NCBI GenBank assembly: GCA_015069195.1
Contig: SVJA01000001.1
Coordinates: 14,148 to 78,147 of the forward strand
DNA from: Oscillospiraceae bacterium
GTDB taxonomy: Bacteria; Bacillota; Clostridia; UBA1212
Length of the DNA stretch: 64,000 bases
Direction of reading: 5' to 3'
Shown here: positions 42,059-43,123 of the stretch, one piece after another
How the letters are laid out: each line of letters begins with the position of its first letter
Numbering within the stretch: the first letter of the stretch is position 1
Program-made: the position numbers and the translations under genes
The notes under the pieces: generated by a model
Told to the model about the DNA's origin: nothing
Database searches by the model: none
The model's input: the letters and a program-made list of their open reading frames with translations, nothing else

Positions 42059-43123
42059 TCAATCACCAAGTCGTACAACCGTTAAATGTGCGGCATATGA
42101 ATCGGTTCCGGTAACATTCACAAGATCAATTCCCTCACCGCTTCTGTTTCTGACGACAATCTCATCTCCCGCAGAAAGAGTTGCAATAGTAGAACCATTG
42201 ATCTGCACGGCATTATTTGACGTCACGTCACTGTTACCCACAACTCCGTACACTGCATCGGTATCAAGGTTTTCTACCGTCAAAACAACATTTGAAGATG
42301 ATTCAGTCGCAGCAACATTTGCACCCCACATAATAAGGTACACGCCGTCCTCATTCACCGTCACAGAATTATCAGTTGCCGTATAAGTCAGGGCTGTTCC
42401 CGCAGTGCTTACGTTGGCAAAAGGAATTACAGCACCCTCTGCAATATCTTCTGCTCCGGTATCATTCAAATTATAAACAGCGGAAGCTACAGTATCACCC
42501 GCAGGACCGGTCGGGCCTGTGGGACCTATTTCACCGGTTGCACCTGTGGGACCTATCTCTCCAGCTGCTCCTGTTGGACCGGTCGGACCTGTAGGACCTG
42601 TGGGACCTGTTGGGCCTATCTCACCTACTGCGCCTGTTGGACCTGTTGGGCCTATCTCACCTACTGCACCTGCGGTGCCCGTAGGGCCTGTAGGACCTGT
42701 TGGACCTGTCGGTCCTATTTCACCTGTGGCGCCTGTGGGACCTGTCGGTCCTATCTCACCTGCGGCGCCCGTAGGGCCTGTTGGGCCTATCTCACCTACT
42801 GAGCCTGTGGGACCTGTAGGTCCTATCTCACCTGTGGCGCCTGTGGGACCGGTGGGACCTACTGCACCTGTGGCTCCCGTTGCACCGGTCGGACCTGTAG
42901 GACCTACTTCGCCTGTCGCCCCTGTCGCTCCTGTGGGACCTGTTGCTCCCGTAGGGCCTCTGAAACCGGGTAAACCGATAGGACCTACCGGACCTGTTGG
43001 ACCCGTAGGACCGGTAGGTCCGGTAGCCCCTTGGTAAATCGTTATAGCCGGACAAGAATCAGGCGGCGGGCAAGGCGGACGACAACCTCCGCAGCCGCGA
43101 TTATTTCTGTTATTTATAGCCAT
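42059..43123 (-). CDS. Collagen-like triple-helix repeat protein with BclA/C1q-like C-terminal domain (exosporium/spore-surface glycoprotein-like)
   Basis: N-terminal [24 protein letters not shown]. About 70 Gly-X-Y triplets ([16 protein letters not shown]...). C-terminal domain of about 125 aa ([12 protein letters not shown]...[10 protein letters not shown]...[11 protein letters not shown]) resembling the BclA C-terminal jelly-roll. GGAGG RBS. Confidence 0.8.
42480..43020. repeat. Degenerate 9-27 bp coding tandem repeats (Gly-Pro-Thr collagen triplets)
   Basis: Reiterated cctgtgggacctatctcacc-like units. In-frame coding, not CRISPR. Confidence 0.8.

Follow-up and report, generated by a model that had tools for sequence, protein, structure and literature searches.

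The locus described here raises the question of whether a collagen-like protein and the glycosyltransferase encoded beside it form a glycosylated surface filament and, if so, whether that filament belongs to the spore or to the vegetative cell. Spores of the Bacillus cereus group and of Clostridioides difficile make contact with their surroundings through an outermost surface of BclA collagen-like proteins, which shape adhesion, clustering and immune recognition. The gene pair lies in a 64-kb stretch of DNA, called the window below. Its host is an uncultured ruminant-gut Clostridia bacterium, whose relatives are uncultured metagenome-assembled genomes, some of them named for the GTDB order UBA1212 and family UBA1255. 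The features on which the analysis rests, all on the minus strand, are the following.

43133..43137, minus strand: GGAGG ribosome-binding site of the collagen-like gene, 9 nt before its ATG (from the sequence)
42059..43123, minus strand: gene for the collagen-like protein, 354 aa, stop codon included (from the ORF list)
43031..43123, minus strand: Cys/Pro-rich N-terminal module, aa 1-31, a putative cystine-knot or anchoring module (sequence, hydropathy)
42491..43030, minus strand: collagen-like region, aa 32-211, a putative triple-helical stalk and O-glycosylation substrate (triplet count)
42062..42490, minus strand: globular domain at the C-terminus (aa 212-354), a putative distal head that mediates trimerisation (Pfam, profile, AlphaFold2, Foldseek)
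41985..42022, minus strand: intrinsic-terminator-like hairpin between the collagen-like and glycosyltransferase genes, GCCGCCUUA...UAAGGCGGC followed by UUUUU (sequence, fold)
40882..41973, minus strand: glycosyltransferase with GT-A (GT2) and TPR domains, 363 aa, the putative enzyme for the collagen-like protein (Pfam, AlphaFold2, Foldseek)

Architecture of the collagen-like protein

The open reading frame at 42059-43123, first proposed in the initial annotation, is real and encodes 354 residues; at least 23 metagenome contigs in public collections, contigs of 0.2-1 Mb among them, carry a gene for exactly this protein. An open reading frame on the plus strand (42519-43037) was rejected as a gene, being a mirror artefact of the collagen repeat. 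The protein consists of three parts: a Cys/Pro-rich N-terminus, a G-X-Y stalk and a head of the BclA/C1q type.

The cysteine-rich N-terminal motif is present as the initial annotation had described it, and is read here as a module of 31 residues. Its pattern, N-R ... C-x-C ... PPCPPP leading into G-X-Y, recurs in the partner proteins of homologous GT2-TPR genes, and does so independently of the type of C-terminus that these partners carry. In some partner proteins few or no N-terminal cysteines are apparent, and several of those have doubtful start codons. The collagen-like region that follows was thought to comprise about 70 uninterrupted triplets; it is indeed uninterrupted, but the count is 60. 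These triplets contain 40 threonines and include 29 GPT, 9 GAT and 8 GEI, with threonine occupying 39 of the 60 Y positions. The Pfam Collagen family matches the protein with E = 2e-27, and the region gives strong matches among the collagen chains of the PDB. The NCBIfam models for Scl1/Scl2 and Lcl reach 107-112 bits against cut-offs of 325-500, and they do so over the repeat region only.

Neither the collagen-like protein nor its GT2-TPR neighbour contains a signal peptide, a transmembrane segment or an LPXTG motif. In the N-terminus of the collagen-like protein, hydropathy peaks below what a signal peptide or a transmembrane segment would require, and no wall anchor or other recognisable anchoring feature was found in that protein. 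The N-terminus was also compared by eye with the Bacillus-type exosporium leader that docks on ExsF/BxpB (the leader peptide is described in PMC12357932), and no such leader is present. Since clostridial BclA proteins also lack the Bacillus leader, its absence excludes only the Bacillus subtype.

Structure of the C-terminal domain

The C-terminal domain comprises 143 residues rather than the 125 given initially, and the strands that had been quoted for it are all present in the sequence. The Pfam family BclA_C (PF18573) scores 32.2 bits against the whole protein and 35.3 bits against the domain alone, values which do not reach the gathering threshold of 38; the match to the head has E = 1e-7 to 1e-8 and spans profile positions 10-127 of 128. 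A word-indexed search with the head alone gave no match, and with the family profile it returned only six proteins; a pattern scan for the head in one genome per species found no relative. Homologues were recovered by exhaustive HMMER search. Of 43 homologous domains, 26 match Pfam BclA_C at E <= 0.01, and 12 match C1q. With phmmer, the head alone retrieved only chance antibody matches from the PDB, so that profile and fold searches were needed. The profile built from the 43 homologues retrieved C1q, adiponectin and cerebellin chains from the PDB, together with the F-BclA head 9h38 (E = 3.7e-8).

The structure of the head was predicted as a single chain. The AlphaFold2 model is all-beta and has a pLDDT of 95.2. 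Its top Foldseek matches are the C-terminal domain of F-BclA (9h38) and the BclA structures 2r6q, 1wck, 3tyj and 2z5w, with E-values from about 1e-8 to 3e-9 and TM scores of 0.72-0.84 (0.79-0.84 for 9h38; 0.72-0.78 for 1wck, 2r6q and 3tyj). Sequence identity to the Bacillus BclA and F-BclA heads is only 16-20%. The modelled domain is a TNF/C1q-like jelly roll, nearest to heads of the BclA type, and structure prediction with fold comparison upholds the BclA/C1q-like fold that had been suggested from the strand pattern. The collagen-tipped fibres of phages and giant viruses resemble the head as closely as BclA does (TM 0.76-0.82); consequently, the fold alone does not specify a role in the spore.

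The glycosyltransferase and the intergenic hairpin

The next gene was described initially as encoding a GT2-TPR enzyme, and it is found as such at 40882-41973 on the same strand. Pfam matches to GT2 and to TPR are both present in its product, with TPR_P4H reaching 28.6 bits against a cut-off of 27, and the DXD motif is formed by D86-L-D88. In the AlphaFold2 model (pLDDT 93.4) an alpha/beta domain covers residues 1-170 and a helical repeat domain residues 177-362. Judged from its sequence, the enzyme is predicted to be cytoplasmic and soluble. The top Foldseek matches, over the full length, are the glycocin glycosyltransferases SunS and ThuS. The enzyme also aligns over its full length with a GT2-TPR protein of Romboutsia lituseburensis (23% identity, E = 2e-14), the gene for which is located 3 kb from a BclA_C gene.

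The 89-nt stretch between the two genes folds as a whole at -22.7 kcal/mol. It holds a hairpin with a 9-bp G+C-rich stem and four further pairs, followed by UUUUU, which was missed by the terminator consensus scan because its outer loop is longer than 8 nt. The hairpin is kept in the closest related locus (L084). A weak terminator had been proposed at this position; the hairpin is terminator-like, but with such a stem and folding energy the description as weak does not hold.

Conservation of the gene pair

Of 80 metagenome loci with homologues of the GT2-TPR gene, 72-73 have a collagen-like gene as the immediate upstream neighbour, on the same strand and separated by gaps of 33-178 nt. Most of the loci without an upstream collagen-like gene are cut by the end of a contig, and in every distinct context that was looked up individually the collagen-like gene directly precedes the GT2-TPR homologue. 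No other neighbouring gene is conserved across the 80 loci. This locus and its relatives show that the collagen-like gene and the GT-A/TPR gene are closely linked as a cassette that is widespread among gut Clostridia. The near-constant pairing, together with the SgtA-like size and architecture of the enzyme, supports the idea of a dedicated glycosyltransferase that the initial annotation had put forward.

In the window the cassette is flanked by genes for RodA, Lgt, two M16 peptidases and ClpP. The ClpP neighbour passes the curated cut-offs set for two ClpP subfamily models of NCBIfam but not that of the strict clpP equivalog. The genes for a GT8 protein, a hexapeptide acetyltransferase and ClpP, and two unannotated open reading frames, all of which lie beside the cassette, are kept only in the closest relative, L084; as none of the other 80 loci has them, they were not counted as part of the system. 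The cassette is adjoined by a gene for tRNA-Pro(GGG). A functional link between this tRNA and the collagen gene was considered and dropped, as the combined share of CCC and CCU among the proline codons of that gene does not differ from that in other genes of the window. In related genomes found via RodA, the Lgt-RodA arrangement is shared but nothing downstream of RodA is, so that they give no clue to how the cassette arrived.

Promoters and sporulation

The sigma-K consensus known from work in B. subtilis is AC-N16/17-CATAnnnTA. A motif of this type (AC-N16/17-CATAnnnT) was scanned for within 200 nt upstream of the genes. It is found before 35 of the 51 complete partner genes, representing about 9 of 14 sequence groups, as well as before seven of 11 related partner genes examined earlier; among 1862 upstream regions used as controls, 1.8% have it. 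In the 133-nt upstream region of the collagen-like gene of the window the motif is absent under both strict and relaxed patterns, and the sole promoter-like match there is a weak sigma-A-like one (TTGTAA-18-AATAAT).

In C. difficile, the spore hairs carry the C-terminal domains of BclA2 and BclA3 at their tips; the genes are under SigE/SigK control (bioRxiv 10.1101/2021.06.21.449304). A role in the exosporium of the present host is conditional on sporulation.

About 60 open reading frames from the 64-kb window, small intergenic ones included, were compared with sporulation families and none matched. In a window of this length, the failure to recognise a sporulation gene speaks only weakly against sporulation.

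Proposed assembly and alternative explanations

The explanation that we favour, with moderate confidence, is that the two genes make up a cassette of the BclA3/SgtA type whose product is a filament, most likely on the outermost layer of the endospore. The collagen-like protein, having no signal peptide, would be synthesised in the cytoplasm, where the TNF/C1q-like head may nucleate a homotrimer; AlphaFold3 homotrimers have been reported for the C-terminal domains of C. difficile BclA proteins (PMC13188886). The 60 G-X-Y triplets would then zip into a collagen triple helix of roughly 50 nm, and the N-terminal Cys/Pro-rich module would presumably staple the three chains together, possibly also cross-linking them through disulfides to cysteine-rich surface proteins. 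The downstream gene would provide a soluble, metal-dependent GT-A enzyme, with the TPR domain gripping the proline-rich repeat while the catalytic domain places a sugar on the threonines of GPT and GAT triplets, as SgtA does on BclA3. Deposited from the mother-cell cytoplasm with its head outward, the molecule would most likely become a hair-like filament of the nap on the outermost layer of the endospore. The window gene is the expected kind of protein in a new host.

The same glycoprotein cassette could instead serve a host that does not sporulate. Transcription would then start at a promoter of the housekeeping type, and the filament, reaching the cell surface or the medium by an unrecognised export route or by lysis, would act as an adhesin or as a fibre of the vegetative cell. 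We regard this as unlikely. Several observations speak for it: the window gene does not have the sigma-K-type motif of most of its relatives and shows a sigma-A-like match in its place, none of the open reading frames scanned in the 64 kb was recognised as a sporulation gene, the lineage is uncultured, and related genomes show no synteny downstream of RodA for the region from tRNA-Pro to the cassette. Against a vegetative fibre, no feature for export or anchoring can be recognised in the protein, be it a signal peptide, a transmembrane segment or an LPXTG motif, and a cytoplasmic glycosyltransferase acting on a cytoplasmic substrate would suit assembly in a mother cell. All the characterised bacterial proteins of the same architecture cited here are proteins of the spore surface or of spore appendages, the relatives carry promoter motifs of the mother-cell type, and the missing sporulation genes, as stated above, count for little. 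The more specific proposal that the cassette has been removed from the sporulation programme, and now provides, from a housekeeping-type promoter, a glycosylated collagen fibre on or around vegetative, non-sporulating cells, appears distinctly improbable.

If the protein were the remnant of a collagen-like fibre from the tail or head of a prophage, or a receptor-binding protein of phage origin, the likeness of the model to viral proteins would be accounted for, since phages and giant viruses often have collagen stalks that end in C1q/TNF-like heads; the GT2-TPR enzyme itself matches PHROG 13126 (E = 3e-109) and has homologues in jumbo phages, and the adjoining tRNA gene is a common type of integration site. 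Such an origin was rejected as extremely unlikely because of the gene context. No phage structural, integrase or lysis genes are located within 10 kb, the flanks (RodA, Lgt, two M16 peptidases and ClpP) are housekeeping genes, and derivation from a prophage tail fibre, which the initial annotation had named as a possible refutation, is thus not borne out. A tblastn search of the head against 50,697 phage records gave no match, its only PHROG match is marginal (E = 1.8e-4) and to a family with no assigned function, the unannotated neighbours match no PHROG, and elsewhere the cassette is found in varied chromosomal surroundings that lack phage genes. A different reading concerns the enzyme: as its best matches among solved structures are S-glycosyltransferases acting on the cysteine of a peptide, and as the Cys-rich N-terminal module is conserved beside the repeats in the partner proteins, it could S-glycosylate the N-terminal cysteines in the manner of SunS and ThuS, and not the threonines of the collagen repeats. 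This is very unlikely, given that SgtA, the sole biochemically characterised enzyme encoded beside a collagen-like spore gene, O-glycosylates threonine or serine in the repeats, that threonine fills 39 of the 60 Y positions, and that the likeness to SunS is at the level of the fold only, with 16-18% identity. Partner proteins that seem to have few or no N-terminal cysteines also argue against it, although several of their start codons are doubtful.

The linked pair, seen at this locus and at some 80 related ones, usually comes with a promoter motif of the mother-cell type. If this pattern holds, uncultured commensals with glycosylated filaments on the spore surface could be recognised from their genomes by a simple marker. 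The enzymes would then make up a large family of protein glycosyltransferase candidates with specificity for collagen repeats, and the conserved Cys/Pro-rich N-terminal module may be an anchoring device.

Comparison with known systems

Collagen-like G-X-Y repeats are shared with the streptococcal proteins Scl1 and Scl2 and with Lcl of Legionella; the present protein differs from these in its terminal domains and in having no signal peptide or LPXTG motif. With the collagen-like fibres of phages and giant viruses it shares a stalk and a C1q/TNF-like head (TM up to 0.82), whereas the locus has no viral gene context and no sequence match among phage records, and its pairing with the GT2-TPR gene is kept in chromosomes.

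The enzyme resembles SunS and ThuS (PDB 7msn and 7msk) in combining a GT-A catalytic domain with C-terminal TPRs, and these proteins likewise glycosylate a peptide. They are only 16-18% identical to it, and they act on Cys or Ser of small bacteriocin precursors, which are not collagen-like structural proteins; the locus contains no gene for a glycocin precursor.

BclA of B. anthracis and B. cereus, which forms the exosporium nap, and F-BclA of B. thuringiensis, the tip fibrillum of the F-ENA spore appendages, share with the present protein a collagen-like stalk and a TNF/C1q-like C-terminal jelly roll. The stalk is rich in threonine in all of them, and its O-glycosylation is known or expected. 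In contrast to these Bacillus proteins, the N-terminus here features neither an exosporium leader nor an F-ENA docking motif. Glycosylation of Bacillus BclA uses genes of the rhamnose and anthrose pathways and is not known to involve a GT2-TPR neighbour.

The closest parallel is the sgtA-bclA3 pair of C. difficile. The gene order is reversed with respect to that pair, the collagen gene here coming first with the terminator-like hairpin between the two genes, and, unlike that of BclA3, the N-terminal module is a Cys- and Pro-rich segment of 31 residues. The present enzyme is assigned to a different and very large subfamily; its likeness to SgtA is one of size and architecture as published. SgtA (CD3350) consists of 358 residues, with a GT-A domain at 1-260 and TPRs at 262-358; it is encoded adjacent to bclA3 and adds beta-O-GlcNAc to threonines of the BclA3 collagen repeats (PMC7157674). 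The enzyme of the window matches this description as an adjacent, soluble protein of about 360 residues with an N-terminal GT-A domain and C-terminal TPRs, and its partner, as in BclA3, has a short N-terminal domain, a long GPT-rich collagen region and a globular C-terminal domain, with no signal peptide in either protein.

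Anatomy of the collagen-like protein

The collagen-like protein is built of three parts, with a Cys/Pro-containing N-terminus and a globular C-terminal domain (the head) flanking a collagen region. It is followed on the same strand by the gene for a glycosyltransferase with tetratricopeptide repeats (GT2-TPR).

42059-43123, minus strand: collagen-like protein gene, ORF of 354 aa; ribosome-binding site GGAGG, read from the sequence, 9 nt before the ATG
N-terminus, 31 aa: four Cys and six Pro
aa 32-211: collagen region, 60 uninterrupted G-X-Y triplets
C-terminal domain (head): 143 aa
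40882-41973, minus strand: GT2-TPR enzyme, 363 aa; GT-A (GT2) domain with DXD motif D86-L-D88, followed by TPRs

The ORF is real, and the initial annotation of it needs only small numerical corrections: about 70 triplets were claimed where 60 are counted, and a globular domain of 125 aa where 143 aa are found. The remaining features quoted there, including the Cys-rich N-terminus, are all in the sequence. The collagen region contains 29 GPT, 9 GAT and 8 GEI triplets, and Thr occupies the Y position in 39 of the 60. The identical protein is encoded by at least 23 public metagenome contigs, so the gene is conserved and whole, not a product of faulty assembly. A plus-strand ORF at 42519-43037 was rejected as a gene, being a mirror artefact of the collagen repeat. 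Signal peptide, transmembrane segment and LPXTG motif are absent from both the collagen-like protein and the enzyme. Matches of the former to the Scl1/Scl2/Lcl adhesin models are confined to its repeats, with scores far under the cut-offs.

Fold of the C-terminal head

The Pfam BclA_C profile is covered almost fully by the collagen-like protein, scoring 32.2 bits with the whole protein and 35.3 bits with the domain by itself, neither of which reaches the curated cut-off of 38 bits. The head alone found nothing in PDB by phmmer or in a word-indexed protein search. When 1.84 billion cluster representatives were searched exhaustively with HMMER, 64 relatives emerged, with identities of 35-41% for the best. 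Most share one plan, in which a Cys-rich N-terminus leads into collagen repeats rich in GPT and then a head ending ...SLTVVRxG. In an alignment of the head domains of 43 of these relatives, 26 match BclA_C and 12 match C1q. The profile made from it matches adiponectin, C1q, cerebellin and C1q-like chains in PDB, as well as the full length of the tip fibrillum head of B. thuringiensis F-BclA (9h38, E = 3.7e-8).

The AlphaFold2 model of the head, built with the same alignment, is all-beta (pLDDT 95.2). Foldseek against PDB places 9h38 at the top (TM 0.79-0.84), followed by the BclA entries 2r6q, 3tyj, 2z5w, 1wck and 3twi (TM 0.72-0.81), EDA-A1, C1QL proteins and ExsFA. The head is therefore a TNF/C1q-type domain, and the BclA/C1q-like fold guessed in the initial annotation was correct. 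Among predicted viral structures, collagen-tipped fibres from phages and giant viruses match equally well (TM up to 0.82), so the fold by itself does not specify a spore protein.

Elsewhere, the domain that normally caps a collagen stalk is put to a very different use: the public protein P0001 (3952 aa), one of the relatives from the HMMER search, carries 24 tandem BclA_C-like domains in one polypeptide, and P0043, P0048, P0051 and P0054 carry 3-7 copies each.

Chromosomal neighbourhood

The cassette lies in a chromosomal neighbourhood of housekeeping genes. The gene order is IF2, RbfA, NrnA-like, TruB, RibF, two M16 peptidases, Lgt, RodA, an unannotated 151-aa ORF, tRNA-Pro(GGG) on the opposite strand, the collagen-like gene, GT2-TPR, ClpP (scoring higher than the curated thresholds of two NCBIfam models for ClpP subfamilies), an unannotated 167-aa ORF, GT8, a hexapeptide acetyltransferase, an iron ABC transporter, a second GT8 and PFK.

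43257-43333, plus strand: tRNA-Pro, anticodon GGG, divergent, 133 nt upstream of the collagen-like gene
37916-39599, 39633-40136 and 43472-43927, minus strand: GT8, hexapeptide acetyltransferase, 167-aa and 151-aa ORFs; the GT8 and acetyltransferase lie downstream of ClpP

The neighbourhood contains no phage genes, the head had no match among 50,697 phage records, and against PHROGs it gave a single marginal match. Pfam, NCBIfam and PHROGs gave no match for the 167-aa and 151-aa ORFs. The tRNA-Pro, beyond which sits a bidirectional terminator-like hairpin, may lie at the border of a region whose synteny is not kept in related genomes. A functional link between this tRNA and the proline-rich collagen gene was discarded, as proline codon usage shows no connection.

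Two further systems were seen elsewhere in the window. A 52-aa SCIFF ranthipeptide precursor with six Cys, shorter than ordinary ORF-length thresholds (3728-3886, minus; TIGR03973, 82.7 bits, cut-off 50), adjoins its radical SAM maturase (2254-3636, minus; TIGR03974, 746 bits, cut-off 425). An 859-aa protein (5649-8228, plus), otherwise without Pfam match, ends in a type I dockerin, which suggests a cellulosome-type surface system in the organism.

The GT2-TPR enzyme and its pairing with collagen-like genes

The enzyme is a soluble GT-A/TPR protein. Its AlphaFold2 model (pLDDT 93.4) is closest over its full length to SunS and ThuS, which likewise combine GT-A with TPRs and which glycosylate peptides. 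Among the enzyme's TPR matches is the domain with which collagen prolyl 4-hydroxylase binds peptide substrates (28.6 bits, cut-off 27), a lead only. C. difficile SgtA, whose gene adjoins bclA3, has 358 aa, with GT-A at 1-260 and four TPRs at 262-358, and adds beta-O-GlcNAc in vitro to Thr of BclA3 collagen-region peptides (PMC7157674). By this described architecture, SgtA and the window enzyme (363 aa) have the same size and plan. A 359-aa GT2-TPR protein of Romboutsia lituseburensis, encoded 3 kb from a BclA_C gene and taken as a proxy for SgtA, aligns with the enzyme over the full length (23% identity, E = 2e-14). The family is very large and well conserved, with at least 8000 proteins at E <= 1e-10; the best-scoring homologues among the matches listed have 55-84% identity. 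The enzyme also matches PHROG 13126 ('beta-1,4-glycosyltransferase', E = 3e-109), and full-length homologues of 25-42% identity occur in Pseudomonas, Erwinia and Dickeya jumbo phages and an Actinomycetia phage (H2-H15).

The same-strand gene immediately upstream of the enzyme homologue is collagen-like in all loci looked up individually (L084/L085, L086/L087/L094, L088/L089, L095, L096 and the 'bacteriophage sp.' fragment L093). Scanning metagenome contigs yielded 80 more loci, and in 72-73 of these a collagen-like ORF of 10-147 triplets precedes the enzyme, ending 33-178 nt before its start codon; most of the others have too short an upstream sequence to judge. ClpP, GT8, the acetyltransferase and the two unannotated ORFs do not recur across the 80 loci; ClpP, the 167-aa ORF, GT8 and the acetyltransferase adjoin the cassette again only in the closest relative, L084, while L088/L089 have a different hexapeptide acetyltransferase directly 3' of the GT2-TPR gene. 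The conserved entity is the two-gene unit, and the pairing is near-obligate, which bears out the proposal of a dedicated glycosyltransferase next door.

Common to the partner proteins are the repeats and an N-terminal module rich in Cys and Pro, with the pattern N-R ... C-x-C ... PPCPPP; their C-termini vary. BclA_C-like heads are found in the window, L084, L086, L088, L137 and L150; most human-gut partners have a short ...FNALLANLRAAGLL(S/A)T tail, and the C-terminal domain of the upstream L096 partner we take to be BclB-like. On this pattern, the enzyme's recognition target would be the repeats or the N-terminal module rather than the head. Between L084 and the window the enzyme is 80% identical and the head only 58%, as expected for an exposed tip.

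The commonest partner (L097-L176, from human-gut and other loci; also L093 and L095) is a headless protein of about 190-210 aa that keeps the Cys/Pro-rich N-terminus. Its conserved end, ...(V/T)xQ(F/L)NALLANLRAAGLL(S/A)T, may function as a motif for docking or helical trimerisation. L096 has collagen-like genes on both sides of one GT2-TPR gene (2259-3863 and 5418-6269), each with a sigma-K-type motif upstream; the upstream gene has 109 consecutive triplets and the downstream gene is almost all repeats, ending ...APCIL. L086 and L087 have the GT2-TPR and downstream genes in common; in L087 the collagen-like gene is cut to a 141-aa head-only ORF, with large serine recombinase genes (Resolvase/Recombinase/Zn_ribbon_recom) upstream instead, reflecting either rearrangement at the repeat or mis-assembly. 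Many contigs terminate within collagen repeats.

Promoter motifs and sporulation

Mother-cell sigma-K promoters of B. subtilis have the form AC-N16/17-CATAnnnTA. Using the motif AC-N16/17-CATAnnnT, taken from this consensus, within 200 nt upstream, a match was found for 7 of the 11 first collagen-like genes examined and for 35 of 51 complete partner genes in the metagenome scan, where it typically lies 58-134 nt ahead of the start codon. These 35 genes are spread over about 9 of the 14 distinct sequence groups. Of 1862 control regions lying upstream of genes in the loci collected up to that point, 33 (1.8%) carry the motif, and the probability of at least six occurrences among 10 independent genes is ~6e-9. 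The enrichment supports late mother-cell expression of the partner family. Such expression agrees with C. difficile BclA2 and BclA3, which are reported to be under SigE/SigK control and located at the hair tip (bioRxiv 10.1101/2021.06.21.449304), and with the nap of C. sporogenes, which depends on BclA.

However, the window's own gene departs from the pattern of its relatives. Its 133-nt upstream region, the same in two independent contigs, has no sigma-K-type motif, even with a relaxed pattern, and shows only a weak sigma-A-like match. Nor do any of the ~60 window ORFs scanned match sporulation families; one or two such genes might be expected per 64 kb in a spore former, and their absence speaks weakly against one. 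Judged by RodA, a MAG from roe-deer colon is the nearest genome (89% identity), followed at 55-65% by ruminant and gut MAGs, some named UBA1212, UBA1255 and UBA1257; UBA1212 and UBA1255 are uncultured GTDB order and family names. An exosporium role is the most likely reading for the collagen-like protein, unproven for this organism.

Proposed assembly and relation to known systems

In the proposed mechanism, the head would trimerise and nucleate the collagen triple helix, whose 60 triplets, at ~0.29 nm per residue, would give a stalk of about 50 nm. The CxxC/PPCPPP module at the N-terminus could form inter-chain or inter-protein disulfides. The TPR domain of the enzyme would bind the proline-rich repeat while the enzyme O-glycosylates Thr, and the terminator-like hairpin between the two genes may keep the structural transcript above that of the enzyme. 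The filament would be deposited on the surface of the spore, its head facing out.

As its most useful by-products, the analysis gives the near-universal link between this GT2-TPR clade and collagen-like genes, the promoter-motif enrichment and the conserved Cys/Pro-rich N-terminal module. The locus itself is of a kind already known, a cassette of the BclA3/SgtA type, here in an uncultured host.
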